64,000 bases of DNA from Candidatus Hadarchaeum sp. (GCF_038871235.1 NZ_JAVZIN010000001.1:71926-135925); one strand, 5' to 3'. Numbered from the stretch's first letter, positions 36,791 to 64,000 are shown. Numbers and translations are program-made. The notes: a model not told the origin generated them from the letters alone.

Positions 36791-36794
36791 CGTC

Positions 36795-38554: not shown

Positions 38555-38556
38555 CT

Positions 38557-47728: not shown

Positions 47729-48982
47729 GTGAAGCCGCATTTGAACCTGGTCTTTATCGGCCACGTTGACCACGGCAAATCAACCCTCATCGGGAGACTG
47801 CTGGTAGAGATGGGAGTCGTCAAGGAGAAGGAGCTTCTGGATGAAGCCGGAAGCTTCAAGTTCGCCTGGGTGATGGACAGGGAAAAGGAGGAAAGGGCGC
47901 GGGGGGTGACCATTGATATCGCCTACCAGAAGATCGAGACCCAGAAGAATGTCATTACCATAATCGACGCCCCGGGCCACCGCGACTTCGTCAAAAACAT
48001 GATCACGGGCGCGAGCCAGGCCGACGCGGCAGTGCTGGTTGTGGCCGCTGATGATGGGATTATGCCGCAGACCCGTGAGCACGCGGCACTGGCCTTTACC
48101 CTTGGTGTTGGCCAGATCATCGTCGCCATCAACAAGATGGACCTAGTGGGTTTTCGCCAGGAAGTTTATGAAGAGATAAAAAACAGCATGATCACCCTGC
48201 TCAGCAGCATCGGTTACCGAAATGCCTCAGAGTTGCCTTTTATCCCACTGGCGGCTTTCTTCGGCGAGGGCGTCACTAAACCCAGCCCAAAGATGCCCTG
48301 GTACAATGGACCCACCCTACTCGGAGCTCTGGAGAGGTTAAAGGAACCCGAGAAGCCGATAAACAAGCCCCTGAGGATCCCGATTCAAGATGTTTTCTCA
48401 ATTACTGGAGTTGGCACGGTACCGATAGGTCGCGTGGAAACCGGCGTCCTGAAAATTAAGGACATCGTCGTCTTTGAGCCTTCGGGCAGTAGCGGTGAGG
48501 TCCGCAGCATCGAGATGCACCACGAACAGATTCAGCAGGCGGTTCCGGGCGATAACATCGGCTTTAGCGTCAGAGGGGTCTCCAAGGATGAGGTGAGGCG
48601 GGGAGACGTCGCCGGCCATCTGACAAACCCGCCCACCGTCACCAATGAGTTCACAGGAAAAGTGGTCATCCTCGCCGTCCCTACTGAAATCTCGCCGGGA
48701 TTCACGCCGCTCTTCCACTGCCACGCGGCTCATGTCCCGGGAACCATAATCGAGATCCTGCAAAAAATAGATCCCAAGACCGGGGCGGTTGTCGAGGAAC
48801 ATCCGAAATCGCTGAGGAAGGGCGACGCGGGCGTCATCAGGGTCAGGCTGGCCAAGCCGATGGTGATCGAGCGATCCAGCGAACTCCCGGAGCTAAGCCG
48901 GTTCGCCATCAGGCACGCCGGACAGACCATTGCCGCCGGCATGTGCATTGACCTCGTTGAAATTAAGAGGGCCGCGAGATAA
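47729..48982 (+). CDS. EF1-alpha-family translational GTPase paralogue
   Basis: 417 aa. 'GHVDHGKST', 'IIDAPGHRDFVKNMITGASQADAAVLVV' and 'NKMD' are all present. Domains II and III are collinear with aEF1A. The segment after G3 reads 'AADDGIMPQTREH' rather than the longer a/eEF1A insert. Confidence 0.75.
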   Translation: MKPHLNLVFIGHVDHGKSTLIGRLLVEMGVVKEKELLDEAGSFKFAWVMDREKEERARGVTIDIAYQKIETQKNVITIIDAPGHRDFVKNMITGASQADAAVLVVAADDGIMPQTREHAALAFTLGVGQIIVAINKMDLVGFRQEVYEEIKNSMITLLSSIGYRNASELPFIPLAAFFGEGVTKPSPKMPWYNGPTLLGALERLKEPEKPINKPLRIPIQDVFSITGVGTVPIGRVETGVLKIKDIVVFEPSGSSGEVRSIEMHHEQIQQAVPGDNIGFSVRGVSKDEVRRGDVAGHLTNPPTVTNEFTGKVVILAVPTEISPGFTPLFHCHAAHVPGTIIEILQKIDPKTGAVVEEHPKSLRKGDAGVIRVRLAKPMVIERSSELPELSRFAIRHAGQTIAAGMCIDLVEIKRAAR

Positions 48983-49017
48983 CTCGATCACGAGTTACTC
49001 AGCTGCTTCGCCCTGAT

Positions 49018-49326
49018 TCATCTCATCTTTTCCCTTACCGCTTCCACCTTCGACTCCATGGTCATCCTTTTGTCGCGACGCTCATCTAGGTTTATCTTGG
49101 TCACGATTCGAGAAACGCCCATCTTGAAAACCGCCTCCTGCATCTCCAGAGCCAGCCGTAACAGCTCCTCAGTTTCTCCTTCCACGATGGTTCCCATGGC
49201 CGTGACCTGATACTTCGCCCCCTTGCTTTCCAGAACCCCCACCGCCGCAGCCACATAATTGCTGACCGAAGCACTCCCCGTGCCCACAGGGACGATGCTA
49301 ATCTCCATTAGTGCCATAACTGCCAC
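49018..49326 (-). CDS. MTH1187/YkoF-family (thiamine-binding-like) protein
   Basis: 102-aa DUF77 fold. Confidence 0.6.
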   Translation of the reverse strand: MAVMALMEISIVPVGTGSASVSNYVAAAVGVLESKGAKYQVTAMGTIVEGETEELLRLALEMQEAVFKMGVSRIVTKINLDERRDKRMTMESKVEAVREKMR

Positions 49327-49400
49327 CCAACCAAGCTTGCTCAGAGAAGTAAATAAAACCGTTGCCTCGCCACCAGCAACGAGGGAATGCAGCCGGGGAA

Positions 49401-50051
49401 TCAGTAATTTTCGCTCAGCAGCTCATAGTATGCCTGAGGGTGCTTGCAGGCGGGACAGACTTTTGGTGCCTCCATCCCCTCATGGACATAGCCGCAGTTC
49501 CGGCACTTCCACTTCACCACTCGGTCCTTTCGAAAAACAGTGTTGTTCTCCAAATTCTCCAGCAGCTTCCGATATCTCTTCTCGTGCTGCTCTTCAACCT
49601 CAGCTATTTCCCTGAAAGAATCGGCTATCTCGTCAAAGCCCTCTTCCCTAGCCACCTTTTCGAACTCGGGGTAAAGTGTTCCCCACTCCATCCTCTCCCC
49701 TTCGGCAGCGGCCAGCAAGTTCTCCTTGGTGGTCCCGATTTTCCCGGCAGGATAGGCCGCCTCGATAGCGACTTCCCCTCCCTCCAAGTATTGGAAGAAC
49801 ACTTTGGCGTGCTCCTTCTCATTATCCGCGGTCTCAAGAAATATCGCACCGATCTGCTCATAACCCTCTTTTTTGGCGACGCTGGCAAAATAGGTATACC
49901 TATTTCTGGCCTGGCTCTCACCGGCAAATGCCTTCAGAAGGTTCTTCTCCGTCCGACTACCCTTTAACCTCATTACATCATCCCCTGATAAACTAAAGCC
50001 CCCCTGTTTAAAAATATCTGCAAAATAAAAACCGATTTTCTGAATCAGCAA
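49401..50051 (-). CDS. rbr: rubrerythrin
   Basis: Di-iron ferritin-like N-domain plus a C-terminal rubredoxin 'CRNCGY...CPAC'. Confidence 0.8.
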   Translation of the reverse strand: MLIQKIGFYFADIFKQGGFSLSGDDVMRLKGSRTEKNLLKAFAGESQARNRYTYFASVAKKEGYEQIGAIFLETADNEKEHAKVFFQYLEGGEVAIEAAYPAGKIGTTKENLLAAAEGERMEWGTLYPEFEKVAREEGFDEIADSFREIAEVEEQHEKRYRKLLENLENNTVFRKDRVVKWKCRNCGYVHEGMEAPKVCPACKHPQAYYELLSENY

Positions 50052-50056
50052 ACCTT

Positions 50057-50863
50057 TTAGAGCTTCGGGATTTCCGGAGGCCTGAGCTTGTGGAGACTCC
50101 TGCGCTCACGTTCGACAATCGACTTCACTTCATCCAGCCTCAGACCAACTGTTTTTGCAATCGCAACTGGCTTAAGACCCAGATCCAAGCCAGCGAAAAT
50201 CATGTCAAGATTCTTATAACTTATACCTAACTCGCCCTCATCTGTTTGGCCCGGCCACAGCCCCGCCGTTGGTGTCTTATCCACTATCTGCTTAGGGATG
50301 CCAAGATAACAGGCCAGTTCCCTCACCTGTGTCTTATACAGCGCGCCCAAGGGGGCTAAATCAGATGCACCGTCCCCGTATTTGGTGAAATATCCCGTCC
50401 TAAGCTCGCTCCGGTTACTACATCCCACGACAAGCCTGTTCAACATGTTGGCGTAGTAATAAAGCACGACCATGCGAACCCTGGGCAGAATGTTGGCGTT
50501 TGGCAGTTTGGCCTCGGGTTTAAATTCCAGCTGGCCTCGCAGAGCCTTTACCACCGGAGCGATGTCAATAACCCTGAAATCTATGCCCAGCTTCTCCGCA
50601 ACCAGCCGGGCATCGGCTACGTCGCTAGGGTCTGATACCCCAACTTCAGGAAGTGAAATTCCCAACACCTTTTCTGGACCAAGTGCTCTTACGCAGAGGA
50701 CTGCCGTAACGGAGGAATCAATTCCGCCGCTGAGGCCTATGACAACACCATCGGCGCCAGACTCACGAACCTTGTTTTTGATAAAGGTAATCAGCTTTTT
50801 TTCCACCGCGACCGGATTAATTTTCAGCACTCTAGCAATCTGTTTCAATTCCTCTTCAGACAT
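50057..50863 (-). CDS. nadE: NH3-dependent NAD+ synthetase
   Basis: PP-loop 'GLSGGIDSSV'. Confidence 0.85.
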   Translation of the reverse strand: MSEEELKQIARVLKINPVAVEKKLITFIKNKVRESGADGVVIGLSGGIDSSVTAVLCVRALGPEKVLGISLPEVGVSDPSDVADARLVAEKLGIDFRVIDIAPVVKALRGQLEFKPEAKLPNANILPRVRMVVLYYYANMLNRLVVGCSNRSELRTGYFTKYGDGASDLAPLGALYKTQVRELACYLGIPKQIVDKTPTAGLWPGQTDEGELGISYKNLDMIFAGLDLGLKPVAIAKTVGLRLDEVKSIVERERRSLHKLRPPEIPKL

Positions 50864-50871
50864 GCCATCAC

Positions 50872-51693
50872 CTAGAATTTTCTGGGATAGGAACCGAGGA
50901 TCCTCAGCATCGCAGTTTTCCTTTCAACCTCTCTGAGGGCCTCCTTGACCTTTCTGTCCTCGCGGTGCCCCTCCAAGTCTATGAAGAAGAGGTAATCACC
51001 CAAGGCCTTTTTGGAGGGTCGGGATTCTATCTTGGTGAGGTTAATCTTCCTCACCGCGAACTCTCCAAGTATTTCATGCAAAATACCTGGCCTATCATCC
51101 GCCGTGTAAAAGACGATGGATGTCTTATCTCTGCCGGTTCTGCGGCTGTCCTCCTTGGCGATATGTAAAAAGCGAGTAATGTTCCTTTCGCCGCTTTGGA
51201 TGTTGTCCCTCAACACCTGCAAATTATATAATTTCGCCAGCATCCGGGGGCCAATGGCCGCAATGTGTGGCTGTCCTAGCTTGCTCACCTGCTCCGCTGA
51301 TCTCGCCGTGCTACCCATCTCCACTATCTCCGCCATGGGTAGATTCTTTCTCAAAAATTCCCGGCACTGGGCGATTGCCTGTGGATGTGAGAGGACCTGG
51401 GTTATCTTCTCAATCTTGGATCCCTTCACCCCGAGCAGAGCGTGCGTAATTGGGAGGACGATCTCACCCTTTATCTTAACATCGGCCCAGGTAAGTGCAT
51501 CAAGCGACTCGCCCACCGATCCTTCCCTCATGCTCTCCACTGGGATAACGCCGGCATCAACCTCGCCTCGAGCGACCGCCTCAACAACGTCCGATATCGT
51601 TGGATATAGTACTACCTCAGCCCGTCCCTTGAACTGGGACCAAGCGGCGATCTCCGAGTAGGTACCACGGGGGCCCAGCGCGCCAACCTTCAT
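50872..51693 (-). CDS. pheA: prephenate dehydratase
   Basis: 273 aa with PDT and ACT domains. Confidence 0.8.
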   Translation of the reverse strand: MKVGALGPRGTYSEIAAWSQFKGRAEVVLYPTISDVVEAVARGEVDAGVIPVESMREGSVGESLDALTWADVKIKGEIVLPITHALLGVKGSKIEKITQVLSHPQAIAQCREFLRKNLPMAEIVEMGSTARSAEQVSKLGQPHIAAIGPRMLAKLYNLQVLRDNIQSGERNITRFLHIAKEDSRRTGRDKTSIVFYTADDRPGILHEILGEFAVRKINLTKIESRPSKKALGDYLFFIDLEGHREDRKVKEALREVERKTAMLRILGSYPRKF

Positions 51694-52547
51694 GGTCCTC
51701 CTCCCTCAAACCGTCGATACAAATCTGCGTAGGCCCGCTTAACCTCATTCCTTCCGAACAAGGCCACCGCCTTGCCAACAATGGTTCTGACGGCCTTTAA
51801 ATCACCCCTAGCCAATAAAGCATTCAAGGAATGAAATGCCTCTATTGCCGATTGTCTCACCAGCTCGGAATATTTATTCTGCTGTTGAATTTCCAGATAC
51901 AGTTCCGGCTTGCCCGCCGAGGCCGCTTTCGCCAGCTCAACCAGCGCCGAGAACATCGGCGTCCGCATTCTTCGGGATATCTTCCCGCCATTGAGCGCCC
52001 TTAACGCTTGGACGTAGGAAAGTAGAATGAAATGGGACAGACATTGGACAACTGCCATGGTTCGGTCGTGAAGTTCTGCGTCCATCTCAATGACCCGTGC
52101 GCCATCACTCCTGAGCAGTTCCTTCAGCTTCCGATAACGTTTTCCTGGCCTGACTGGAATTGCCACCACGTCCTTGTTTTTCAGGCTTGAGGCCCCCGGT
52201 CCGAAGAGCGGGTGAATTGAAACCAGCTCAACGTCTTTTTCTATTCTCTCCATCGTCTTTACCACCTCTAGTTTAACCGAGGCCACATCAGCTATCAGCG
52301 CGCCGCTCTTGGCTTCCCCTGCTACCTCCAGCAAAACTTTTGGCGTGGCTGAAATAGGAACTGCAATAAATATTATGTCAGCCTCAGCCGCGGCATTTCT
52401 TGCCAGCGCGGCCTTGACCTTTAACTCCGCGGCCAACTTTCTGGCCTTAAGGCGATTGACATCAGAAACAACAACTTCGCCTAAGCGTTTGGAGAACTTT
52501 GCCAGCCACTTTCCCATTTCACCAGCACCTATAACTGCCGTCTTCAA
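51690..52547 (-). CDS. tyrA: prephenate dehydrogenase
   Basis: Rossmann 'VIGAGEMG'. Confidence 0.75.
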   Translation of the reverse strand: MKTAVIGAGEMGKWLAKFSKRLGEVVVSDVNRLKARKLAAELKVKAALARNAAAEADIIFIAVPISATPKVLLEVAGEAKSGALIADVASVKLEVVKTMERIEKDVELVSIHPLFGPGASSLKNKDVVAIPVRPGKRYRKLKELLRSDGARVIEMDAELHDRTMAVVQCLSHFILLSYVQALRALNGGKISRRMRTPMFSALVELAKAASAGKPELYLEIQQQNKYSELVRQSAIEAFHSLNALLARGDLKAVRTIVGKAVALFGRNEVKRAYADLYRRFEGGGP

Positions 52548-53398
52548 CCAACCACCTTCCCTATTTCACGTCTAACTGCGTCTTCCATAACTTTGATGGG
52601 TGCCCTCTTTCCTGTCCAAATCTCGAAGGCCAGAGCCCCCTGTCTCACCAGCATGCCCAAGCCATCAACTGTCATGGCCCCTGCTTTCTCCGCCTCCAGC
52701 AACAGACGGGTTCGAATGGGCTTGTAAACGATATCATAAACGGTCAGATTCCGGTGCATCATCTCCGCTGTCACCAGCGTCTCATCTATCCTCGGCCGCA
52801 TGCCAACCGAAGTGGCATTAATCAGGACCTCCGTGTTCGTGATAAATCTCTTAAGCGTCCTTCGGTCTATGGAGATAGTTGGCACCTCTTTTCCCAGCTT
52901 CTGCTCAATCAATGAAGCCAGTTCCTTCGCCCGCGACACCGTCCGGTTAGCGATGCTAAGCTCCGCCCCGGCCTTGAGCAACGAAAAGGCAATGGCCCGC
53001 GCGGCACCTCCGGCTCCAAGCAACAGTACCCTCTTGCCTTTCACTTTGCCAACTTTCTCTTCAAGATATCTCAGCGCACCTTCGCCATCTGTGTTAAAGC
53101 CAACCAGCTTGCCGCGGCTGTTTTTTATCGTGTTGACTGCCCCGGCTAAAGCCGCTGATTCATCCAATGCGTCTAAGAACTTCATCACAGCAATTTTGTG
53201 CGGGATGGTGACGTTGAGCCCGGCAATCCCCATTTTCCTAGTTCCGGCAATGGCATCCCCAAGTAAATTTTCTGGAACTCTAACGGCCACGTAGATATGG
53301 TTGAGCCTCAGTTTCTTGAAGGCCGCGTTCATCATCGCCGGGGAAAGGGAGCCCGCCACAGGGTCTCCGATAAGCATGAAGACCTTTAGGGATTTCAA
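52544..53398 (-). CDS. aroE: shikimate dehydrogenase
   Basis: 284 aa AroE fold. Confidence 0.8.
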   Translation of the reverse strand: MKSLKVFMLIGDPVAGSLSPAMMNAAFKKLRLNHIYVAVRVPENLLGDAIAGTRKMGIAGLNVTIPHKIAVMKFLDALDESAALAGAVNTIKNSRGKLVGFNTDGEGALRYLEEKVGKVKGKRVLLLGAGGAARAIAFSLLKAGAELSIANRTVSRAKELASLIEQKLGKEVPTISIDRRTLKRFITNTEVLINATSVGMRPRIDETLVTAEMMHRNLTVYDIVYKPIRTRLLLEAEKAGAMTVDGLGMLVRQGALAFEIWTGKRAPIKVMEDAVRREIGKVVG

Positions 53399-54150
53399 CC
53401 TCCGCCCTCCCTCGGCATTAGTTTTTGCAGCAGGAGTTTGGTCTCAGCGACATCAAACTGCCCAGGTGCGGTTGGTCTGCCGACGCTGGCGTAGGTTAAA
53501 GGAGAGCCAAGCATCAGGCTGGCGATTCTGGTTATCCTGCCTGCCTCCCCCATGGCAAAGGCCACCACCGGGACTGAAATTTCATCCTGAACATCAACGA
53601 GGAAATCCAGAACTCTTATCGAATCGGTGGGATCATGGGCCATCGTCACCAACTTAATCACATCTCCACCGGCCTTGACCATTTTACCCGCCATCCTCTT
53701 GAGCGCTTTAATTCCAGGCGTCATTGAAAAATCGTGCCATGACATCAACACCGAAACCCCTTCCTGTCTAGCCGCTGTCACCACCTTATCCCTGAGGGAT
53801 TTAGGTGTGGAGAACTCGAGATCCACGCAGGGCACCTGGTTCTCGATGGCCTCCAGAATTATCTCAACCCGTTCCCCCTCGCTTCCTGAAAAAGCTCCAC
53901 CCTCTCTCTTCGGCCGATGGGTAAAGATCAGGGGTAAATCATCCTTCAGAATTTTCTGCCAACCTTCCTTATCCCCAAGGCTGTCCATCCTCAGCTCAAC
54001 CAGATCGGCACCCCTCTTCAGCGCTAGAGAAATGGCCCGGCTCATCTCACGCACGTTCCTGCCCTCCACGGCGCCGCAAACTGCAGGAGTTTTGACAACG
54101 AGCCTTCCCAGTTTAAGCTCATTCAAAGAGAACACCGACTTATCTCTCAA
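53395..54150 (-). CDS. aroD: 3-dehydroquinate dehydratase, type I
   Basis: 251 aa. Confidence 0.8.
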   Translation of the reverse strand: MRDKSVFSLNELKLGRLVVKTPAVCGAVEGRNVREMSRAISLALKRGADLVELRMDSLGDKEGWQKILKDDLPLIFTHRPKREGGAFSGSEGERVEIILEAIENQVPCVDLEFSTPKSLRDKVVTAARQEGVSVLMSWHDFSMTPGIKALKRMAGKMVKAGGDVIKLVTMAHDPTDSIRVLDFLVDVQDEISVPVVAFAMGEAGRITRIASLMLGSPLTYASVGRPTAPGQFDVAETKLLLQKLMPREGGG

Positions 54151-55261
54151 CTACGGTCTCCTCAACACTGACGCCGAAGTGTCTCCCCGCCTTCTCCACA
54201 TGAATGAGAACTTCATCGCCGGGCCTCAGCTTGGCCACGGAAATCGGATTGCCATCCTTGCTGACGAGATTAATCGTCTCCGCGTTCTGGAGAAGGGTCT
54301 TGTAAATCTCGCCCGCGTATTCGACCTCGACCAACAGCAGCGGTCGTCTCTCTATCTTAACCCTGCCTACTGTGGCCACTCTGGTCTCCCCCCTGAAGTT
54401 CACCAAGAGAACCTCGTCACCAGCGCTGAGCTCCGACATGTACTTAGTCTTGCCTCCCGGCAATCTGATATAGGCATGGACGGCTCCGGCATTAACCCGA
54501 AACGGCCGCGGAGCCACAAATTCGCTGGTTAAGGTCTCCGAATGTACTAAAAACATGCCACTGCTTTGACTACCCACCAGCATGCCCTCGCCAATGGTCA
54601 TTAAAGAAGCAGTATCAATACAAGCCCGGTCGCCCATTCCCACTGGCCTGACCAACCTCACCGTGGCGGGGACGAGCTCCAGCCTCTCCCGCGAAAGTGA
54701 CTCCAGCATTTCACCGACCTTGTTAATTTCCTCCGGTCCTCGCTCTCTGGCATCCAGAAGAACGCCCGCAGTTCCCACCTCCAACGTTTCAACGGCGACC
54801 CTGGCCTCGGTGGCGTCTTTTACTCCAGCCAGGACCTTCACGTCCGTCCGCTGCAGCTCTGCGATCATGTTTTCTAAGGGGATAACCTTCCAGTCGGGTG
54901 TGACCGCTATCAGATAATCCACACCTTTTCCAACCTCGACCGCTGCCCTCTCCATTTCCTTGTTTGAAACCTCAACGAGAACGGCGACCTTCGCCTGGGC
55001 GCGCAGACTTTTTGCATGCCTCAGCACTTCTTCGACCTCACCGCTCTTCGCCAGGTTGAGGACGACAATGCTGATTCCAGGAGCAAGTTCCCGGGCGGCC
55101 ATCAGGATGGTGCCCTGCTTGAGGACTTCGGAAGCCTCCTCAGGCTTTATCAACACAGCGTCGGCTCCTGTTTCTATGGCTGCTTTGACAAACGGCTTCT
55201 TTGACTCCCAAGCTTCATCCCAGTCCGCCCTGACCCAGAGTAGCCTACGCAAAAGGCTCAC
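54140..55261 (-). CDS. aroB': 3-dehydroquinate synthase II (archaeal ADH-pathway type)
   Basis: 373 aa, COG1465-like. Confidence 0.75.
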
Positions 55262-56058
55262 CGCTTAAGCTCACGCATCGCCTGCTCGATAGTAGCGCCC
55301 TCATGAACTATACGCGCCAGAGCTCTAGTCATCGCGGTCGGGTTCTTGTGCTGGAAAATGTTCCGGCCGATGGAAATCCCGATGGCGCCGGCGCTCAGAG
55401 CCTCTGATGCTAATTTCAGAACATCCAAATCCGTGTTCATCTTCGGTCCCCCAGCGATCACAATTGGCACTGGACATCCTTTCACCACCTTACTAAAGGA
55501 CTTGACATCACCGGTGTAAACGGTCTTCACGATATCAGCGCCAAGCTCAGCGCCTACGCGGGCAGCATGGGCTACCAGTGTCGGATCATGTTGGTCCTTG
55601 ACCTTAGGTCCCCGGGGATACATCATCGCAAATAATGGCATGCCCCAAGTGTCGCAGGACTCAGCCACCTCGCCCAAGTGCTGCAGCTGTTCCTCCTCAT
55701 TGGGCGCACCGACGTTAATGTGAACCGAAACTCCATCGGCACCCAGAGCGATCGCCTCCTCCACACTAGCAACCGGCACCTTGCAGTTAGGGTCGGGCCC
55801 AATCGAGGTGCTACCGGAGAGATGGATAATCAGCCCCAGATCTCTTCCGTAACCTCGATGACCAGCACGAACGATTCCCTTGTGTAGCACCACGGCATTA
55901 GCGCCGCCATCGGCCACCTTGTTCACGATGGCTGCCATGTTTTCCAAGCCTGAGATGGGACCCATTGACAGCCCGTGGTCCATCGGGACGATTACCGTCC
56001 GTTTGGTCTTGCGGTCAATTATCCGCTCTAGCCTAATGCGCTTACCGGCTTCGGACAA
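55258..56058 (-). CDS. aroA': 2-amino-3,7-dideoxy-D-threo-hept-6-ulosonate synthase (class I aldolase DhnA-type)
   Basis: 266 aa class I aldolase fold. Position within the aro cluster. Confidence 0.7.
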
Positions 56059-56195
56059 CCTTTACACCTCCTTTTGAGATATGCCGCGCATGGATTAAAA
56101 ACGTGTAGGGGAGCTTTTCTGGACATTTAGACCACGGCTAGCTGAATAAGCGTCGGGCTGCCCCACCTCTTACTCATTGTTACCTATCCTTATCA

Positions 56196-57056
56196 TCATA
56201 TTGAAAGAAGAAATAAGCCCACCAAGAACGATGCGATGCCAATCGTTTGGTTAATGTCAACGGTTTCATGGTAAAATATCTTGGCCAAGATAATGGTGAC
56301 TATCGGTGAGGATGCTGTTATTGGCGCCACGATGGCGGTATATTCTGAGTTCACGCCCAAGCCATAACCCAAGAAAGCAAGAAACTCCAACAGCCCTATT
56401 AAAATTATGAATGTTGCGGCGACTTTTGGAAAAGACACGTTTCTCCCTGAGGTGCTTGAATAAATGATCAGCAGGGGGAGTGAAAAAAATTTGATGAAGA
56501 AAATCGGCAAGAACCAGCCAAGTTCAGAGACCAGGTAATCGACAATGGCATACTGAACGCCAAAGGCAAACAATGCCAAGAGCGCATAACTGACCCCAGC
56601 AGCCAAGTTCATCTGCCTTAGCCCCAGCATGTCTTGCCATTTGAAGGAAACCAACACAACGGCACAGATCACCAGAGCCACGCCAGCCAATCTAGCACCA
56701 GTCAATGTTTCATCTAAAAAGATCAGACAAAGGATCACCGTGAGAACGACCCATGAAGCGGAAATGGGCGTAACCACAGACACCTGCCCCACCTGTAAAC
56801 TCTTATAGAGGGCCAAGTAAGCCGTGATGTGAAGAAAGCTGCAGCCGAAAATAGTTCCCAGCAAAAATCCAGAGATTGGGGGCAACTCAAAGAAAAACAG
56901 AAGGGTCAAAAAATAAAAAAATAAGCTGACCACTTCCCCCCACAAAAATGCCCTGAAGACGCTTACGCTTTTGACAACTTTCACCACCAAAAAATCGGCG
57001 AGGCCCCAGCAAAACATGGCGACGAGTCCAAAAATGATGCCGACAGGTAAACTCAT
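56196..57056 (-). CDS. EamA/DMT-family transporter
   Basis: 286 aa with 10 TM and two EamA repeats. Confidence 0.65.
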   Translation of the reverse strand: MSLPVGIIFGLVAMFCWGLADFLVVKVVKSVSVFRAFLWGEVVSLFFYFLTLLFFFELPPISGFLLGTIFGCSFLHITAYLALYKSLQVGQVSVVTPISASWVVLTVILCLIFLDETLTGARLAGVALVICAVVLVSFKWQDMLGLRQMNLAAGVSYALLALFAFGVQYAIVDYLVSELGWFLPIFFIKFFSLPLLIIYSSTSGRNVSFPKVAATFIILIGLLEFLAFLGYGLGVNSEYTAIVAPITASSPIVTIILAKIFYHETVDINQTIGIASFLVGLFLLSI

Positions 57057-57169
57057 AAAAACAATTTTATAAACGGAGTACTTAAGCTAATCTGAAAAAC
57101 AACATTTTTCATCGATTAAAATTAAGATTCAGGCCAAAATATTTAACTAATAAAGTACATGTAAAATCG

Positions 57170-57811
57170 ATGTGTGAAGAGTTGATTAAGAAGCTATACA
57201 ATTCTGTTTTGGAGGGGGATGAAGAAAAAAGCCGGAAAGCCGCAGAGGAAGCCGTTGAAAAGGGGATCGATCCTGTTTTCGCCATCGAGCATGGTCTGGC
57301 AGCAGGTTTGAATGAGATGGGCTCGAAATTTGAACGTGGTGAGGTGTTTCTGCCGGATCTCCTTCTCTCTGCTGACGCGATGAAAGCCGGCATGGACATC
57401 CTCCTAGCAAAAGTGCCCAAAGAAATGTCCCAAAAGGCAGGTGTCATAGTAATCGGCACTGTCGAAGGGGACATTCATGACATGGGAAAGAGCTTGGTTG
57501 CGGCGCTGTTATCGGCTGCGGGCTTTCAGGTCCATGATCTGGGAAGGGACGTCAAAGCGATGAACTTTGTAAAAAAGGCCGAAGAAGTTAACGCAAACAT
57601 CATCGCTGCATCAGCCCTTATGTCAACCACCGCCCCTTTTATCAGAGACATTATCTCACTCCTGAAGGATAAGCAGGTTCGAGATAAATTTAAGGTGATC
57701 ATTGGCGGTGGGGCGGTAACTAAGGAATTCGCAGAATTGGTCGGGGCTGATGGCTATGGCCAAAACGCCACCGAGGCCGTTCGACTGGCCAAGGAGGCGA
57801 TGGGAACTTGA
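57170..57811 (+). CDS. corrinoid (cobalamin-binding) methyltransferase partner protein (MtmC/MtbC/MttC-like)
   Basis: 213 aa with an N-terminal helical cap and a B12-binding Rossmann carrying 'GTVEGDIHDMGK' (DxHxxG). Confidence 0.8.
   Translation: MCEELIKKLYNSVLEGDEEKSRKAAEEAVEKGIDPVFAIEHGLAAGLNEMGSKFERGEVFLPDLLLSADAMKAGMDILLAKVPKEMSQKAGVIVIGTVEGDIHDMGKSLVAALLSAAGFQVHDLGRDVKAMNFVKKAEEVNANIIAASALMSTTAPFIRDIISLLKDKQVRDKFKVIIGGGAVTKEFAELVGADGYGQNATEAVRLAKEAMGT
57791..57798 (+). promoter_or_regulatory. Shine-Dalgarno-like element for MtmB-family gene
   Basis: AAGGAGGC sits about 10 nt upstream of the TTG start at 57808. That start overlaps the corrinoid gene's TGA stop. Confidence 0.4.
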
Positions 57812-59178
57812 AGCTCACGCCGGCTGAGATCTATAACCGGGCTGAAACCGGCCCGATTATGGACGAAGGACAATTTGATAAAAAAATCCTGCCGAGGAAG
57901 CTCAGAGAGCTAGCAAGGGATTATGATATCAAGTATAATCCCGCTGAACCCGTACCTACCGACGATAGTCTAGCCGATGCCGTCTTCGAGGCAGGAAAAA
58001 GGTTGCTTCTCGATCTAGGCATCCTCTGCACTGACACGGGGAGGTTAATAAAATTCTCTGATGAGGAAATTAAAGAAGGGTTAAAGTCAGCACCGAACAA
58101 AATTGAGGTGGGGCAAGGAGAAAGAACAAGAATATTAACACCCAGAAAGGCCGGAGACAAAAGCGTGCCTTGGCTGGTTCCTGGACCTAGCGGGATGCCA
58201 ATATCCGAGGAACTAGCTCCAATCGTGGCCACATCCATTGCTAAGGAACCGCTCGCTGAGGGTTATTGGGGACCGACGATACCAAGATTTCAAGGTATCC
58301 AAGTAAAACTGCACTCACCGCTCGAGATCTTTGCCTCAAAGTATGAAATCACGTCTTCTAAGGAAGGTGTGAGGAGAGCTGGTAAGGAAGGCCTAGCTGT
58401 GGTCGGTGGGATGACGGGACTTGGCCTCCCTGCCTTCATGGCCGCTATGTCCGCCGGAGGGCTCACCAAGGGTGACTGCATTCTGACCAGCTGCGTCAAC
58501 GAGCTGAAGATCAATTACGACATTTTGTCCAAGGTGCTGTACACTTCGAGGTGCACCGATGTGAACCTGATGTACGACCCAACACCTGTCCTCGGCGGTA
58601 TTGCCGGCGGGCCTGAGACAACCGCAATCGTCTCGGCCGCGCAGGAAATAGAGTGTCTGTTACTGGGCGCAACTCTGAGCGGCGGAAACGCGATCGACAT
58701 CTGGTCTGGAACGAGTTCCAATCGTGAAGCCATCTGGGCCTCGGATCTGTTTCTAATCGGAATGAACAGAAACGTTGAGGCGCTGGAATATTGTTACCAT
58801 TTCGCAGCCGCAGGGCCGTGCACCGAGATGCTTCTCTACGAGGGGGCGGCGAAGACAATAGCCGCCGTCGCCTCTGGCTACGACTTCCACTGCGGCCCGC
58901 TAGCATTGAAAGCCGGAAAAGAAAACTACATCTCCCCGCTTGAATTCAGGCTGTGTATGGAAGTGGCCCATGCTGTCACCGGGATCAAACGAGGGGACGC
59001 CAACGATTTAATTAAACTGTTATTCGTCAAGTTCGAGGATAAGATTAAGAATCCGCCGCAGGGAAAAAGCTTCACCGAGTGCATGGATCTGAAATCGCTG
59101 GAACCATCCAAAGAATGGCAAGTAATTTATGAAAAAGTGAAAAAAGAGCTGGAAGATATCGGAATTCAATTTAGATAA
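57808..59178 (+). CDS. MtmB-family (monomethylamine methyltransferase-like) protein lacking pyrrolysine codon
   Basis: 456 aa collinear with Methanosarcina MtmB. 'LCTDT', 'NELKINYD', 'AAGPCTEMLLYE' and the C-terminal 'KKELEDIGIQF' all match. The ORF is uninterrupted with no in-frame TAG. The Pyl-aligned position is Leu in 'GGMTGLGLPA'. Confidence 0.8.
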   Translation: MKLTPAEIYNRAETGPIMDEGQFDKKILPRKLRELARDYDIKYNPAEPVPTDDSLADAVFEAGKRLLLDLGILCTDTGRLIKFSDEEIKEGLKSAPNKIEVGQGERTRILTPRKAGDKSVPWLVPGPSGMPISEELAPIVATSIAKEPLAEGYWGPTIPRFQGIQVKLHSPLEIFASKYEITSSKEGVRRAGKEGLAVVGGMTGLGLPAFMAAMSAGGLTKGDCILTSCVNELKINYDILSKVLYTSRCTDVNLMYDPTPVLGGIAGGPETTAIVSAAQEIECLLLGATLSGGNAIDIWSGTSSNREAIWASDLFLIGMNRNVEALEYCYHFAAAGPCTEMLLYEGAAKTIAAVASGYDFHCGPLALKAGKENYISPLEFRLCMEVAHAVTGIKRGDANDLIKLLFVKFEDKIKNPPQGKSFTECMDLKSLEPSKEWQVIYEKVKKELEDIGIQFR

Positions 59179-59235
59179 ACTTCTCTCGGCTGTCAGCTAC
59201 GCTCAAGGCTGGACCAGTGTCTTCAATAACGGTGA

Positions 59236-60579
59236 TTAATCCTTGATCTCTCTAAAGGTCTCGTAAGTCGCTTGGATGGTTTTCTCAATATCCTCGGGCT
59301 CGTGCATTGCTGAAACCATCCACTCCTCAAACCACGCTGAACCCGCCGGTATTACCCCGCGGTTCAACATGTGGAGCCAGTATCTACCCCACTTAGCAGC
59401 GTCACAGCGGGAGGCCTCACGGTAGTTCTTTGGCGGCTCATCCAGACCGAAGAAGATGCTACCCATCATGGTGCATCGACCCACAACAGCCTTTATGCCG
59501 GTGTCGGCTATGGCGTCAACCACTCCTTTGTAAAGCTCGTCACCCAGCTTGTTTATCTTCGCATAAGTGGTGTCGGTCATCACCTTTTTCAGCGAGGCCA
59601 AACCTGCGGCAATGGAAAGTGGGTTGGCGTTGTAGGTTCCATAGTGGACGACCCCGCCCAAAGGCGTTATCATCTCCATATATTCCCTCTTACCACCAAA
59701 TGCCGCCAGCGGAGCACCGCCTCCAATGGCCTTGGCGAAGGTAACTAGATCAGGCTCGATTCCGTAAAGCTGACTGCCACCACCTGCGGAGAGGTTGCAG
59801 CCCGTCTTAACTTCGTCCAGAATCAACAGGACTCCGTACTCATCGCAGAGTCTCCTGACCTCCCTGAAGTAATCCTTTTCGGGCGTTATGATACCACTAT
59901 TGGTCAGCACCGGCTCGGTGATTATTGCCGCGACTTCATTCTCGTGCTTTTGGAGAACCCTCTCCAAGCTACCGACATCGTTGAAGTGCGCCACCAAGGT
60001 CTGCTTAACGACCTCCTCCGGTGTGCCCAATGAATCTGGCGTTGAAGCTGGATTGTGTACCGAACCCAATATCACGCGCCTTCTGGGCTTATCGCTTATC
60101 ATCAGGACATCGCTGGCACCGTGGTAGCATCCTTCCATCTTCACGATCAGTTTTCTTCCGGTCGCTGCCCTCGCTAACCTAACGGCGTAGAAAGTCGCCT
60201 CTAGCCCGGTGTTAGAAAAGCGCAGCATTTCCACATAGGGATATCGTCTCATCAGCTCCTGGGCCAATTCATACGCGCCCTCGGCTTGGAATCCCAACAG
60301 CGTTCCTTTCTTTACCTGCTCATTTATGGCCTCGATTATAACGGGATTGGCGTGCCCCGCCGTCATAGCACCGTAGCCAAGGCAGTGGTCCACGTATTCC
60401 CTGCCATCCAAATCCCAAAGCTTACCACCAAGTCCCCTAGCCATATACAGCGGGTAAGGTCGGAAGAACTGAATAGCGGTGTTCACTCCTCCCGGAATTA
60501 TTTTAGATATTTTCTCAAAATATTCTCTAGACTTGGGCGTGTTTTTTATATAAATTTCCTCCTCGGGTAAAGAAGGCAT
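59236..60579 (-). CDS. class-III PLP-dependent aminotransferase (GSA-aminomutase-like)
   Basis: 447 aa with 'LILDEVKTGCN...' around the PLP Lys, and 'TFAKAIGGG'. Confidence 0.7.
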   Translation of the reverse strand: MPSLPEEEIYIKNTPKSREYFEKISKIIPGGVNTAIQFFRPYPLYMARGLGGKLWDLDGREYVDHCLGYGAMTAGHANPVIIEAINEQVKKGTLLGFQAEGAYELAQELMRRYPYVEMLRFSNTGLEATFYAVRLARAATGRKLIVKMEGCYHGASDVLMISDKPRRRVILGSVHNPASTPDSLGTPEEVVKQTLVAHFNDVGSLERVLQKHENEVAAIITEPVLTNSGIITPEKDYFREVRRLCDEYGVLLILDEVKTGCNLSAGGGSQLYGIEPDLVTFAKAIGGGAPLAAFGGKREYMEMITPLGGVVHYGTYNANPLSIAAGLASLKKVMTDTTYAKINKLGDELYKGVVDAIADTGIKAVVGRCTMMGSIFFGLDEPPKNYREASRCDAAKWGRYWLHMLNRGVIPAGSAWFEEWMVSAMHEPEDIEKTIQATYETFREIKD

Positions 60580-60699
60580 TCCACCCCCGCTAACTACTCC
60601 TTTCTTTCGCTATTTAAACCTGAGTTCAGGGACTGACCCTATAATATCGAAAAACGCGGAAAAAGAAGTTAAATTTTTTAACTGATATGAAAATGTTTA

Positions 60700-61764
60700 A
60701 TGGGACATATGAAAATTGATGTGGAAGTTAAAAACGTGACCAAGAAATTCGGAGAAGTTATTGCGGTGGATAATATTTCATTTACCGTTGAAAAGGGCCA
60801 ATTTTTCTCCCTCTTGGGACCATCAGGTTGTGGAAAAACCACCACGCTCAGAATGATCTGTGGCTTTGAAACCCCAACCGAAGGTGAAATATTCATCGAT
60901 GGAAAGCCAATGACAAACGTTCCTCCCTACAAGAGGCCCACCAATCTTGTCTTCCAAAATCTGGCCCTGTTCCCACATATGAACGTGTATGACAACATCG
61001 CCTTCGGTTTAAGAATAAAGAAAGTTCCAGAGCCTGAAATCCAGAAGAGGGTCAAAGAAATGCTCGAGCTCGTGCGGCTGCCCGGATATGAAAAAAGAAA
61101 GATAAGCCAGCTCAGCGGGGGTGAAAAGCAGCGGATAGCGATAGTGAGGGCGTTAGTGAACCGGCCTGCGGTGCTGCTGCTTGATGAGCCGCTGGGCCCT
61201 CTTGACCTGAAGCTCAGGGAGGAAATGGTCGTGGAATTAAAGCGAATCAAGCGTGAGGTAGGAACTACCTTTATCTATGTCACGCACGACCAGGGCGAGG
61301 CACTAACCATGTCAGACAAAATAGCCGTTATGAATAAAGGCAAAATTGTGCAGATGGGAACTCCACTAGAAATCTATGAAAGACCAAACTCCAAATTCGT
61401 GGCTGACTTCATCGGGGGGACCAATTTCTTTGAAGGAAGATACCGCGATGGTGTGGTGGAAGTTGACAAGCTGGGAAAAATCATCGTTGCGCCCGGACAG
61501 AGGATTTCCAAGAAAACCGTCCTGATCTCCGTGAAGCCCGAAAAAATATCCATAGGTAAAAAGTTGAGGAAGCTAGACAACGTCTTCGATGGGAAAATCA
61601 CCGAATCATTCTACCAAGGAAAGTCTGTCACCTATAAGGTTCTGTTGGAAAATGACTCTTTACTCACGGTAGTGGCACCGACCACCGGCGTGGAGTTCAT
61701 TTTCAAAATAGGAGAGAGAGTGAAGATCGGCTGGAACAAAAGAGATGCCCGAGTGATTGAATAA
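60700..61764 (+). CDS. ABC transporter ATP-binding protein, PotA-like with C-terminal TOBE domain
   Basis: 'GPSGCGKTT', 'LSGGEKQRIAIVRAL', 'LLDEPLGPLD'. Confidence 0.8.
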   Translation: MGHMKIDVEVKNVTKKFGEVIAVDNISFTVEKGQFFSLLGPSGCGKTTTLRMICGFETPTEGEIFIDGKPMTNVPPYKRPTNLVFQNLALFPHMNVYDNIAFGLRIKKVPEPEIQKRVKEMLELVRLPGYEKRKISQLSGGEKQRIAIVRALVNRPAVLLLDEPLGPLDLKLREEMVVELKRIKREVGTTFIYVTHDQGEALTMSDKIAVMNKGKIVQMGTPLEIYERPNSKFVADFIGGTNFFEGRYRDGVVEVDKLGKIIVAPGQRISKKTVLISVKPEKISIGKKLRKLDNVFDGKITESFYQGKSVTYKVLLENDSLLTVVAPTTGVEFIFKIGERVKIGWNKRDARVIE

Positions 61765-62692
61765 GCAGGAAAAACATGAGTTAGGGGGCCTGATGAAATC
61801 GGGTGAAGCCCAAAAGAACTCCCGGGGACCAAAAGCGGCACGATTAAAGGGATTGCTGTTGGTTGTCCCCACCTACCTCTGGCTCATTGTTACCTTTTTA
61901 ATCCCTGTCCTTTCGGTGTTAATGCTTAGTTTTGCTGAACTTCATCCGGCAACAAAGGATATTTTGAGATTCCCCATATTGGACAACTACGCCACCTTGG
62001 TAATAAACTTGGACTACATCTTCGTGCTGCTGAGAACTCTGCTCTTGACCGTGGCGGTAACCGTCTCTTCAGTTGGGCTGGCCTATGTCTTGGCCTATTT
62101 CATAACTTTCAAAATCCTAAAAAACAGATACACTATCCTCATAGCATTTCAAGCACCTTACATCGCCTCCTACATGATGGTGCTGCTGGCTTGGCGCCTG
62201 CTTTTGGGAAGGACGGGAGTAATCAACTCGTTGTTGATGTCGATCGGTTTGACCAACGCCCCAGTTGAGCTCCTAGGATACAATGCCTTTTCAGTCTGGT
62301 TGGTATTGACAGCCACTTGGTTCCCTTGGCTGATCCTACCGATTTTCGTTTCTCTGGAGAAAATAGACAGGTCCCTTCTTGAGGCTTCACAGGATCTGGG
62401 CGCCTCACCGACGAAAACATTTCTCAAAATCACCTTCCCCCTGAGCTTGCCCGGGGTTTTCGTGGCCATTTTATTCGTGTTCATCCCGACCATCGGAGAA
62501 TTCGTGGCCCCCAGCGTCGTGGGTGGTACCACTGGACTTATGTTCGGGAACCTGATCTATGATTTCTTCCTCAAGGGCTACAGATGGGAAATAGGCTCCG
62601 CCTTTGCCGTTTGCCTGCTCGGCATAGTTATCGTGGCCGTCGTTGCCCTTTTCCGGAAAATAGGCTTTGAGAAATTGATGGAGAGTCTCTAG
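61757..62692 (+). CDS. ABC transporter permease (PotB-like)
   Basis: 311 aa, 6 TM. Confidence 0.75.
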   Translation: MNKQEKHELGGLMKSGEAQKNSRGPKAARLKGLLLVVPTYLWLIVTFLIPVLSVLMLSFAELHPATKDILRFPILDNYATLVINLDYIFVLLRTLLLTVAVTVSSVGLAYVLAYFITFKILKNRYTILIAFQAPYIASYMMVLLAWRLLLGRTGVINSLLMSIGLTNAPVELLGYNAFSVWLVLTATWFPWLILPIFVSLEKIDRSLLEASQDLGASPTKTFLKITFPLSLPGVFVAILFVFIPTIGEFVAPSVVGGTTGLMFGNLIYDFFLKGYRWEIGSAFAVCLLGIVIVAVVALFRKIGFEKLMESL

Positions 62693-63472
62693 ATGAAAAC
62701 GGAAAAAATCTTTTGGACCATTGTTGTCGCCTTTGCTGTGGTTCTGGCATTCTCCCCAATAACCATCTTATTCCTGCTCTCCCTCAACGAATCACCGGCC
62801 CTGCCGCTGAAAAACTTCCCAACCACCAAATGGTATGAGGCGCTGTTCCAATTCCCGGGTGCGGTGGACTCGATTATCAACTCCTTCATGGTCGCAGGAG
62901 TTACTACGGTGGTAGCAGTAATCTTAGGAATCTGCGGTGGCTACGCGCTGGTCAGAACCAAATTCTATGGAAAAAACTTGTTTACCGGGCTGCTCCTGTT
63001 GCCGATGGTTGTCCCCTACATCATCATGGGTATAAGCCTGCTGTCCTTCCTGCTGAGAATGGGAATGCAGCCCTCGCTGGTTACTATCATCATCGGGCAT
63101 ATCTTATTGGCGATACCCTACTCCACGCTGGTGCTGACCTCTAGATTCATCGGGTTCAACATCAGCCTTGAAGAGGCAGCAATGGACCTAGGGGCTGACC
63201 GATTAACCACCTTCAGAAAGATCACCCTGCCCTTGATTATGCCCGGAATCGTGACCGCAGCTATCTTGTCCTTCATCATCTCGTGGGAGGATGTGGCCAT
63301 GGCGGTTTTGCTTGCCGGAAGTCAGCAGACAGCACCGGTCTTCATGTATACGTTGATTACCAAGTTGCCCAAATTCGTGCCAATATTGACTGCGATGTCC
63401 GCCATCATGTTCGCCATGGCCATCCTGCTTGCCGTGATAATGAGAAAGGCGGAAAGATTCTCGGTAAGTTAG
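62693..63472 (+). CDS. ABC transporter permease (PotC-like)
   Basis: 259 aa, 6 TM. Confidence 0.75.
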   Translation: MKTEKIFWTIVVAFAVVLAFSPITILFLLSLNESPALPLKNFPTTKWYEALFQFPGAVDSIINSFMVAGVTTVVAVILGICGGYALVRTKFYGKNLFTGLLLLPMVVPYIIMGISLLSFLLRMGMQPSLVTIIIGHILLAIPYSTLVLTSRFIGFNISLEEAAMDLGADRLTTFRKITLPLIMPGIVTAAILSFIISWEDVAMAVLLAGSQQTAPVFMYTLITKLPKFVPILTAMSAIMFAMAILLAVIMRKAERFSVS

Positions 63473-63559
63473 CTTAAAAAACGTGCCCATATAAAGTCAA
63501 AAAAATAAATTCTTCTTTAGCCCGTTGACGGGCAGCACCTTTGCCGTTGGCCTGTGATT

Positions 63560-64000
63560 CTATCCAACACCGGCAGCTGTTTTAGCCTCTGTCCACGCCT
63601 CAAAGTACCTGTCCCAGATTTCTGGATCTGGATGCTCCCAGTTATAGAAAATTCCCTTACTCAGCAACGCGTCCGGGTTGTCAAGCCCCAGCAGATGGAT
63701 AATCTCTGGATCTGCAATTTCCCATGCCTTTGTGTTCGTGGATGCATAGTAATAAACGTTGGTAAGGAATTGGCCCAATCTGGGATCCAGAAACGCGTTG
63801 ATGTAGTCATGCGCAAGTTCGTACGTTCCTCTTTCTTTTGCACCCTGACCCACATTCATACAGTAGGGCCAGATGAAGAGCGCTTCCCCCTGCCTATAAT
63901 CGTGTCCTGGTGTGAGACCCAAGTAGACCACATCCAGCCCGTCCTCAAGGCCCATCGCGTACACTTCCGTCCACATGGTTGCGATGGCCACCTCGCCTGA
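63560..64000 (-). CDS. extracellular solute-binding protein (PotD/PotF-like), C-terminal part; N-terminus beyond window
   Basis: Partial ORF open to the window edge. Confidence 0.55.
   Translation of the reverse strand, partial: SGEVAIATMWTEVYAMGLEDGLDVVYLGLTPGHDYRQGEALFIWPYCMNVGQGAKERGTYELAHDYINAFLDPRLGQFLTNVYYYASTNTKAWEIADPEIIHLLGLDNPDALLSKGIFYNWEHPDPEIWDRYFEAWTEAKTAAGVG

Follow-up and report, generated by a model that had tools for sequence, protein, structure and literature searches.

Homologues of the pyrrolysine-containing methyltransferase MtmB that lack pyrrolysine (Pyl) are already known together with their corrinoid partners, and one such system has been characterised. This is MtqB/MtqC, the tetramethylammonium/choline:corrinoid methyltransferase pair of Methanococcoides methylutens Q3c, described in 2026 (PMC13044021). 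MtqB methylates cob(I)alamin from tetramethylammonium and choline, and many sulphur-containing and aromatic residues line the pocket in its model; the tree of non-Pyl MtmB homologues in the same work contains 1,061 sequences (PMC13044021). Here, we analysed a Pyl-free MtmB homologue (MtmBh) of 456 amino acids (aa), its corrinoid protein and their neighbours in a 64,000-nucleotide (nt) stretch of DNA from the hot-spring archaeon Candidatus Hadarchaeum sp. (GCF_038871235.1, NZ_JAVZIN010000001.1:71926-135925), referred to below as the window.

The reading that we favour, with moderate confidence and by analogy with MtqB, is that the MtmBh system carries out the corrinoid-dependent demethylation of an imported methylated ammonium compound, the skeleton of which would then be transaminated. 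A preliminary description of the window, made from its sequence, had called a non-Pyl MtmB paired with its own corrinoid protein functionally uncharacterised. This is now only partly true, since the tetramethylammonium/choline enzyme MtqB was characterised in 2026 (PMC13044021) and the family is widespread.

An MtmB Homologue Coupled to a Corrinoid Protein

The 213-aa corrinoid protein consists of a B12-binding_2 cap and a Rossmann B12-binding domain (PF02607 and PF02310) and scored 222.5 bits against TIGR02370, the "methyltransferase cognate corrinoid protein" model (cut-off 215.3). Its DxHxxG motif is DIHDMG, at residues 101–106 (nt 57470–57487). None of the substrate-specific equivalogs MtgC, MtbC and MtaC matched at its cut-off; the best named models were MtgC and MtbC. 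MtmBh is translationally coupled to this protein: its TTG start (57808–57810) and the TGA stop of the corrinoid gene (57809–57811) overlap within the sequence ACTTGA, as a 4-nt start/stop overlap (TTGA). The start is supported by the same NCBI gene call on identical contigs and by homologues that align from residue 1.

MtmBh matched PF05369 with 333.8 bits (cut-off 25; E = 2e-99) over profile positions 5–450 of 450, and aligned over its full length (450 columns) with Methanosarcina barkeri MtmB (1L2Q) at 30–31% identity (E = 9e-67). An AlphaFold2 model of MtmBh (pLDDT 93.9, pTM 0.93) was compared with solved structures in Foldseek. The predicted structure superimposed on the MtmB structures 1NTH, 1L2Q and 1TV2 with a TM score of 0.97 and a root-mean-square deviation of 1.3 Å over 456 columns, while the next-best folds, those of MttB and MtgB, reached a TM score of only ≈0.55. 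MtmBh is thus predicted to have the MtmB TIM-barrel fold.

The preliminary description had reported the corrinoid protein with its DxHxxG motif, the TTGA overlap with AAGGAGG about 10 nt upstream and the lack of an in-frame amber codon, and had asked for an alignment with PF05369 and the MtmB crystal structure. Each of these points held, the gene features by direct reading and by the domain matches given above, and family membership by the profile and by 31% identity to 1L2Q. Its claim of a Pyl-free MtmB-family protein with its own corrinoid protein is therefore supported.

The Pyrrolysine Site

Direct reading of 57808–59178 found zero in-frame TAG codons in the MtmBh gene; elsewhere TAG is a normal stop, ending 9 of the 54 genes in the window. 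In the HMMER alignment with 1L2Q, Pyl202 of M. barkeri MtmB (GMGV-O-GPETSL) is paired with Val199 of MtmBh (GLAV-V-GGMTGL), encoded by GTC at 58402–58404. The preliminary description had placed a leucine (Leu205 of GGMTGLGLPA) at this site, and we correct that assignment. The Pyl column is occupied by Val, Ile or Leu throughout the clade to which MtmBh belongs.

The roles of acidic and polar residues around Pyl in MtmB were reportedly treated by Hao et al. in 2002 and 2004. Among the residues that we take to surround Pyl, Glu205 aligns with Met202 of MtmBh, Glu229 with Leu226, Glu259 with Asp257, Gln333 with Tyr330 and Tyr335 with Phe332. The acidic and polar set is not kept in MtmBh, where Met202, Leu226, Asp257 and Tyr330 stand instead, and according to the alignment, hydrophobic, sulphur-containing or aromatic side chains have replaced these surroundings. 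With Val199 at the Pyl site and Glu205, Glu229 and Gln333 changed, MtmBh cannot employ the Pyl-adduct mechanism.

No pyl genes were found in the 64-kb window or in the clade loci, and neither ARAGORN nor Rfam detected a tRNA carrying a CUA anticodon in the window, intron-containing tRNAs included.

Place of MtmBh in the Non-Pyl MtmB Family

When one genome per GTDB species was scanned with a pattern, 286 MtmB-homologue loci were found, which span Asgard archaea, Bathyarchaeia, Methanomethylicota, Thermoplasmata, Desulfobacterota, Chloroflexi and Spirochaetes. The best 80 of the 286 were retrieved as loci. Pyl-free homologues of ≈455–465 aa are common, and an exhaustive HMMER search of 1.84 billion cluster representatives returned 187 clusters at E = 1e-30 or better. 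In most of 79 related loci, the gene immediately 5' of that for the MtmB homologue encodes a corrinoid protein. Since corrinoid-then-MtmB is the standard gene order of the family, the pairing seen in the window is an ordinary one.

According to a rough neighbour-joining tree and a 13-position pocket signature, the family consists of many clades, each with its own signature. MtmBh falls in a small, long-branched clade, the active-site signature of which (VGGM/C-L-C/D/I/YHF/C) was found in no other clade. The members are the window, Hadesarchaea MAG-18, Hadarchaeum yellowstonense YNP_45, Hecatella orcuttiae JdFR-11, one further Bathyarchaeon and a few metagenome contigs; the proteins closest to MtmBh come from Hadesarchaea metagenome-assembled genomes and from YNP_45. 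Outside its own 50% cluster, the best identity is 41–42%, and P0007 (57%) is the sole 50%-identity cluster representative that is more than 41% identical to MtmBh. Judged by sequence, MtmBh represents an isolated subfamily. A literature search on Hadarchaeota or Hadesarchaea with MtmB, corrinoid or pyrrolysine returned nothing on the locus, on the Hadarchaeota/Bathyarchaeia subfamily or on the transaminase/importer module described below.

This isolation bears on the possibility that MtmBh is an orthologue of MtqB, acting on tetramethylammonium or choline, with neighbours that process the products (e.g., ethanolamine derivatives). MtqB (ACT9XH_RS04775) is the sole characterised non-Pyl MtmB homologue and is encoded in the same order, corrinoid protein first and substrate-specific methyltransferase (MT1) second (PMC13044021). 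Its pocket is described as rich in Met/Cys and aromatic residues, and MtmBh puts Met202, Cys224 and Tyr330/Phe332 at the positions that surround Pyl in MtmB. However, in collections that also cover NCBI proteins, nothing beyond its own cluster is more than 41–42% identical to MtmBh, and although this ceiling is indirect for MtqB, it argues that MtqB is not a close orthologue. The division of the family into clades with separate pocket signatures likewise speaks against orthology, as does the window itself, which shows no sign of methanogenesis genes. No Methanococcoides locus was among the best 80 of the 286 loci. We consider it unlikely that MtmBh is an MtqB orthologue.

Elsewhere in the family, loci of Methanosuratincola (L066, L067 and L078) and other Methanomethylicota contain non-Pyl MtmB homologues in tandem, as pairs in which one member keeps the equivalent of Glu205. 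The cultured Methanosuratincola petrocarbonis grows on monomethylamine (PMC12244365), and Verstraetearchaeota have been reported to lack Pyl (PMC6783470, PMC6421429). Because of the retained glutamate, the growth on monomethylamine and the reported lack of Pyl, these tandem homologues are candidates for Pyl-independent use of monomethylamine.

A Conserved Module

MtmBh is adjacent to and convergent with a class-III aminotransferase gene (AT) in all four close relatives with readable flanks, namely MAG-18, YNP_45, Hecatella orcuttiae and the second Bathyarchaeon (L010, L011, L012 and L013/L089). Across these four, identity to the window is 56–93% for MtmBh and 74–97% for AT, which is the most tightly conserved partner of MtmBh. 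A Pot-type ABC importer is present in YNP_45 and Hecatella (67–89% identity), and a near-identical metagenome contig (L091) has the same Pfam layout, importer included. The MAG-18 contig (3 kb) ends just past AT, outside the reach of the importer. The preliminary description had embedded MtmBh in an amine-uptake/aminotransferase locus; its linkage to AT proved constant (4/4), that to the importer less consistent.

Hecatella is a Bathyarchaeon, and thus belongs to another archaeal kingdom. Its importer is 77% (ATPase), 69% and 67% (permeases) and 75% (binding protein) identical to that of the window, and its module sits among ribosomal-protein and acetyl-CoA synthetase genes rather than beside the shikimate (aro) operon that flanks the module in the window. 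The EPSP synthases of the window archaeon and the Bathyarchaeia, in comparison, are only 39–42% identical. Given this difference, the module looks horizontally shared, and it appears to move between archaeal hosts as a unit. Chance synteny was ruled out by the conservation across two archaeal kingdoms with differing flanks. GC content was also considered as evidence of transfer, but the difference between the module (46–54%) and the neighbouring aro genes (50–57%) is too small to count.

The accessory methyltransferase varies with the host. In Hadarchaeota, this place is taken by a non-Pyl MttB homologue that has a corrinoid protein of its own. Contig JAVZDV010000003 (L001), which is 100% identical to window positions 47808–64000 and extends past the window end, continues with the gene of the importer's binding protein, beyond which it encodes a second corrinoid protein (219 aa), then a non-Pyl MttB homologue of 497 aa and then EPSP synthase. 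The second corrinoid protein and the MttB homologue lie on the minus strand at L001:17028–19184, ≈1.0–3.2 kb beyond the window end. At the Pyl334 column, the MttB homologue carries Thr, and its score lies below the cut-off of the trimethylamine equivalog. With this second pair downstream, MtmBh and its corrinoid protein form one half of a two-methyltransferase locus.

The accessory set of Hecatella is a corrinoid protein and a gene for MtbB, of the dimethylamine methyltransferase family, with one in-frame TAG, at codon 356, presumably the canonical pyrrolysine site. These genes belong to a cluster (L004:11433–17979; JdFR-11, MTLY02000003.1) in which a tungsten-type aldehyde oxidoreductase (AOR), a ferredoxin, the corrinoid protein, MtbB and AT are all on the same strand. 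No pyl genes or tRNA-Pyl were found within 10 kb of Hecatella mtbB. The in-frame TAG implies either that Pyl is decoded in this lineage or that the gene is truncated.

A different association was seen in Chloroflexi/Anaerolineae (L055, L059 and L063), which have tandem arrays of two to four MtmB homologues. A class-III aminotransferase distinct from that of the window (28–32% identical to it) directly follows the arrays in L059 and L063 and lies a short distance away in L055, which suggests that the pairing of MtmB homologues with transaminases arose more than once.

The Aminotransferase

Public annotation names the homologues of AT glutamate-1-semialdehyde aminomutase (GSAM), whereas the preliminary description had used the generic label omega-aminotransferase. 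Motif, scores and structures instead make AT a member of a GSAM-like subfamily. Could AT then be HemL, feeding tetrapyrrole or corrinoid synthesis instead of handling a demethylated product? All of the solved structures that match it best are GSAMs (E = 1e-92 to 1e-79; 313 bits), and it passes the NCBIfam "subfamily" model PRK00062 (442 bits, cut-off 398), in line with the GSAM annotation of the sources. Against the hemL equivalog TIGR00713, however, it scored 434.9, under the cut-off of 527.3. The catalytic Lys is kept, but AT has an 8-residue insertion in the lid region and the motif GGVNTAIQFF where three solved GSAMs have GGV(N/S)SPVRAF (the invariant GSAM motif being GGVNSPVRAF), with Arg changed to Gln. 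According to what was reportedly found by Hennig et al. in 1997, this Arg binds the substrate carboxylate in GSAM. The TAIQ/SAIQ motif is common to more than 100 AT homologues of at least 50% identity, and AT therefore belongs to a distinct and widespread subfamily. The nearest non-GSAM structure is the omega-transaminase of Sphaerobacter thermophilus (6K8H; 245 bits), which acts on beta/gamma-amino acids.

The genomic context of AT is different from that of a tetrapyrrole enzyme as well. A homologue that is 65% identical lies in a Fer4-AOR-AT cluster, Mo-dependent aldehyde/xanthine dehydrogenase genes occur near AT in L089 and L092, and AOR is found near MtmB homologues in 3 of 16 diverse loci; the AT homologues are in AOR/ferredoxin clusters, not with hem or cob genes. 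This context fits a route from amine through aldehyde to acid and argues against a role in tetrapyrrole synthesis. On motif, equivalog cut-off and gene context, we rejected the identification of AT as HemL, which is highly improbable.

The same context is relevant to a second alternative, in which MtmBh is a Pyl-independent monomethylamine methyltransferase. MtqB is slightly active on monomethylamine (PMC13044021); M. petrocarbonis uses this substrate (PMC12244365), and the Verstraetearchaeota, reported to lack Pyl (PMC6783470, PMC6421429), carry non-Pyl MtmB homologues. The Hecatella MtmBh is next to a Pyl-type MtbB, as would be expected for sequential conversion of dimethylamine to monomethylamine and ammonia. 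However, ammonia as the product would leave the linked transaminase and aldehyde oxidoreductases without a substrate, and MtmBh has Met and Leu for Glu205 and Glu229, whereas the Methanosuratincola clade keeps the Glu205 equivalent. In addition, a host that decodes Pyl, as Hecatella would if its mtbB is functional, has no obvious need for a Pyl-free MtmB. Monomethylamine is thus a very unlikely substrate.

The Importer

The ATPase of the importer clears the cut-off of the potA subfamily model (TIGR01187). The permeases matched PotH/PotB (≈137 bits) and PotC (138 bits) best among NCBIfam models, both under the cut-offs. The binding protein also matched Pot models under their cut-offs; its closest solved relative is PotF (E = 3e-9), and SpuD-type proteins were matched as well. 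Its N-terminal motif, WAGY, has no acidic residue, where we take the PotD/PotF counterpart to be WTEY/WSDY. Considering these sequence features, an amine-type cargo is likely, although it is probably neither putrescine nor spermidine. Importers of other types, e.g., Bmp/BPD_transp_2, are tied to other MtmB clades, and this variation between clades fits the idea of one substrate per clade.

Proposed Function

In the scheme that we favour, MtmBh would be the MT1 of a corrinoid-dependent demethylation system. Its substrate, a methylated ammonium compound, would probably be delivered by the adjacent, divergent Pot-type importer and bind in the TIM-barrel pocket, where Val199, Met202, Cys224, Leu226, Tyr330 and Phe332 would replace Pyl and the acids around it. 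One methyl group would be transferred to the Co(I) corrinoid of the coupled 213-aa protein. The GSAM-like AT could then deaminate the demethylated amine to an aldehyde or ketone, which an aldehyde oxidoreductase could oxidise; this enzyme would be encoded elsewhere in the genome of the window archaeon, and is encoded beside the module in Bathyarchaeia. Probably, the second corrinoid protein and the non-Pyl MttB homologue strip further methyl groups from that compound or one related to it. A second methyltransferase (MT2), MtrH- or MtaA-like and encoded outside the locus, would pass the methyl on. We infer the substrate class (an N-methyl amine), its import by the ABC system, the order of the steps and the methyl acceptor from gene context, and the chemistry is proposed by analogy with MtqB.

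Several observations weigh against this scheme. Neither an MT2 (URO-D/MtaA, MtrH or pterin-binding) nor an activase of the RamA/RACo type was found in the window or in clade loci L001–L007, L089 and L091. An MT2 is seldom adjacent in the family as a whole, with one MtrH and one RACo among 104 neighbouring open reading frames; an MtrH homologue does follow the corrinoid-MtmBh pair in a Bathyarchaeote of another subclade. Among the 120 matches listed in an MtrH-seeded search, the named ones were Bathyarchaeia and Nitrososphaeria, and none was named Hadarchaeota. The importer was not seen in L013/L089 within 10 kb downstream of the module, the upstream side ending at the contig edge, and the WAGY motif leaves a polyamine-like cargo unsupported. 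P0008 (50% identical, with a different pocket) has a deacylase of the AstE/AspA family in place of AT, and P0006 (61% identical) has an APC-like permease among its neighbours, so the partnership of MtmBh with AT is limited to part of the clade.

A chemical difficulty is added to these observations. Characterised Pyl-independent enzymes of the superfamily mainly use quaternary amines. Since the resulting tertiary amines are not transaminase substrates, several demethylations would be needed, or the transaminase would have to take another amino group. Both ways out are possible: the MttB or MtbB partner could continue the demethylation sequentially, or the substrate could have a second, primary amino group.

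The pocket differences could also mean that MtmBh takes its methyl group from a non-amine donor, such as an aromatic methyl ether or a methyl sulphide, or that it is not a methyltransferase at all. The differences from clade to clade are large enough for substrate classes to have changed, only one member of the family has ever been assayed, and MtmB homologues are located beside the aro operon in the window archaeon and in three Bathyarchaeia. Against this, the retained partners handle amines (the class-III transaminase and, in most loci, the Pot-type importer), the corrinoid partner belongs with the proteins of the methylamine/glycine-betaine type (TIGR02370, with MtgC and MtbC as the best named models), and the modelled fold and barrel are essentially unchanged from MtmB. 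A non-amine substrate or another activity is therefore improbable, and we retain the demethylation of a methylated ammonium compound as the preferred reading.

A more specific version of that reading is offered tentatively, as a possibility that we regard as rather doubtful: the MtmBh subfamily may demethylate a secondary or tertiary N-methyl amine, besides any quaternary one, without Pyl and, with the transaminase and AOR, may constitute a complete, horizontally mobile route. By this route, Hadarchaeota and Bathyarchaeia that are not methanogens would exploit the carbon skeleton as well as the methyl groups of a methylated amine that has so far gone unrecognised. If so, this would give Hadarchaeota a first methylotrophic trait and the non-Pyl MtmB family a second function of a different chemistry.

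Layout of the Locus and Other Features of the Window

The features of the locus are listed in Table 1. The flanking genes named in the preliminary description (EamA, a class-III aminotransferase and a Pot-type importer) were all recovered by Pfam and NCBIfam matches. The description had overlooked the minus-strand gene of the importer's binding protein, which is cut by the window end, and the second corrinoid protein and MttB homologue beyond it. Membership of EamA in the module is doubtful; it adjoins the module in Hadarchaeota contigs only and is absent from the Hecatella and Bathyarchaeia versions.

Table 1. Positions of the genes and signals of the MtmBh locus, and of RNA matches, in the window.
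Feature	Position	Strand	Remarks
EamA/DMT-family membrane transporter	56196..57056	-	PF00892 twice; divergent from corrinoid gene
Cognate corrinoid (B12-binding) protein, 213 aa	57170..57811	+	PF02607 + PF02310; TIGR02370
Shine-Dalgarno-like AAGGAGG	57791..57797	+	10 nt 5' of TTG start, within end of corrinoid gene; direct sequence reading
Non-pyrrolysine MtmB-family methyltransferase homologue (MtmBh, MT1), 456 aa	57808..59178	+	PF05369
GSAM-like class-III pyridoxal phosphate aminotransferase (AT)	59236..60579	-	PF00202; convergent with MtmBh
PotA-type ABC ATPase with TOBE domain	60700..61764	+	PF00005 + PF08402; TIGR01187 362.4 bits (cut-off 355.6)
ABC permease, PotB/PotH-like	61757..62692	+	PF00528; NCBI start at window 61793
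ABC permease, PotC-like	62693..63472	+	PF00528
Importer substrate-binding protein, C-terminal part	63560..64000	-	Full 389-aa gene is L001:15753-16922; PF13416/PF13343
tRNA/5S rRNA matches	10316-10423, 39792-39904, 45313-45429, 11613-11733		

Upstream of the module lies an archaeal ADH-pathway aro operon (50872–56058), and in the window archaeon the module sits between ADH synthase and EPSP synthase. An aro operon next to MtmB homologues was seen in two phyla, in the window and in Bathyarchaeia (L016/L036 of Bathyarchaeota bin28, CP070759; L026; L087). In three Bathyarchaeia, an MtmB homologue with no corrinoid gene is directly 3' of prephenate dehydrogenase, and in bin28 a corrinoid-MtmBh-MtrH set is located on the opposite side of the operon. 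The aro-linked homologues of Bathyarchaeia are only 37–40% identical to the MtmBh of the window. This neighbourhood may be a coincidence, an old synteny or a functional link.

An Rfam scan found no riboswitch or other regulatory RNA near the locus. In the window, Rfam and ARAGORN run with introns permitted found an intron-containing tRNA-Trp(CCA) and tRNA-Met(CAT), which default ARAGORN missed; two more Rfam matches were a 5S rRNA and a third tRNA with a weak score (30.6 bits).

Three further regions of the window were noted. At 35569–39678, an ABC importer of the BtuFCD/FecCD type (binding protein, permease and ATPase) precedes an NTPase and a DUF364/DUF4213 "heavy-metal chelation" protein; it may take up corrinoids or metals, which would bear on B12-dependent metabolism. 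A B12-binding radical SAM protein of 497 aa (19318–20811) is another potential corrinoid-dependent enzyme. The 429-aa homologue of the RuBisCO large subunit at 27741–29030 is presumably an archaeal form III enzyme of nucleotide salvage.

Comparison with Known Systems

Many non-Pyl MtmB homologues occur in Asgard archaea, Bathyarchaeia, Methanomethylicota, Hadarchaeota and in bacteria that reduce sulfate or ferment, and only one of them has a known substrate. For MtmBh, the conserved partners narrow the search far more than the sequence of the protein alone: the binding protein is usable for ligand fishing, and the transaminase substrate should be the demethylated product. Identifying the substrate would add a second function to the family and show how a Pyl-free pocket is retuned. 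Hadarchaeota have so far been described as CO/H2 oxidisers, as fermenters of sugars or amino acids, or as alkane oxidisers, and the substrate of MtmBh would also show whether they live on methylated amines.

The importer resembles PotFGHI/PotABCD in its ATPase, which passes the potA cut-off, and in its permeases and binding protein, which match Pot components best; it differs in the weak match to PotF (only E = 3e-9) and in the WAGY motif. AT shares with HemL/GSAM and with 6K8H the fold-type I, class III architecture and the conserved catalytic Lys, but unlike HemL it has TAIQ for the SPVR of GSAM and an insertion in the lid, and it falls under the hemL equivalog cut-off.

The non-Pyl members of the MttB superfamily (MtgB for glycine betaine, and the carnitine, proline betaine and butyrobetaine enzymes) offer a parallel in that a Pyl-free methyltransferase works with a cognate corrinoid protein. 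They are quaternary-amine enzymes, and one member of the superfamily, the 497-aa protein, is encoded 6 kb downstream of MtmBh. They belong, however, to PF06253 and not to PF05369, and their fold matches with a TM score of only ≈0.55. No characterised non-Pyl MttB enzyme is known to hand its product to a co-encoded transaminase.

M. barkeri MtmB/MtmC and the pair in the window have the Pfam family, the fold (TM 0.97 for the MtmBh model) and a DxHxxG corrinoid partner in common. The M. barkeri gene has a UAG codon for pyrrolysine, whereas MtmBh has Val199 at this site, Met for Glu205, Leu for Glu229 and Tyr for Gln333.

MtqB/MtqC is also a non-Pyl MT1 of the MtmB family, of ≈456–459 aa and directly after a corrinoid protein of ≈215 aa (PMC13044021, supplement), and the expected methyl transfer, from an ammonium compound to Co(I), is the same. 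MtmBh is at most ≈41% identical to it by the indirect estimate, and its host is a non-methanogenic Hadarchaeote. The conserved transaminase and Pot-type importer of the MtmBh module have not been reported for mtqBC, and no MT2 of the MtbA/MtqA type was found near MtmBh. At present, the MtmBh module is a well-supported annotation with a testable hypothesis attached to it, and not a new kind of system.

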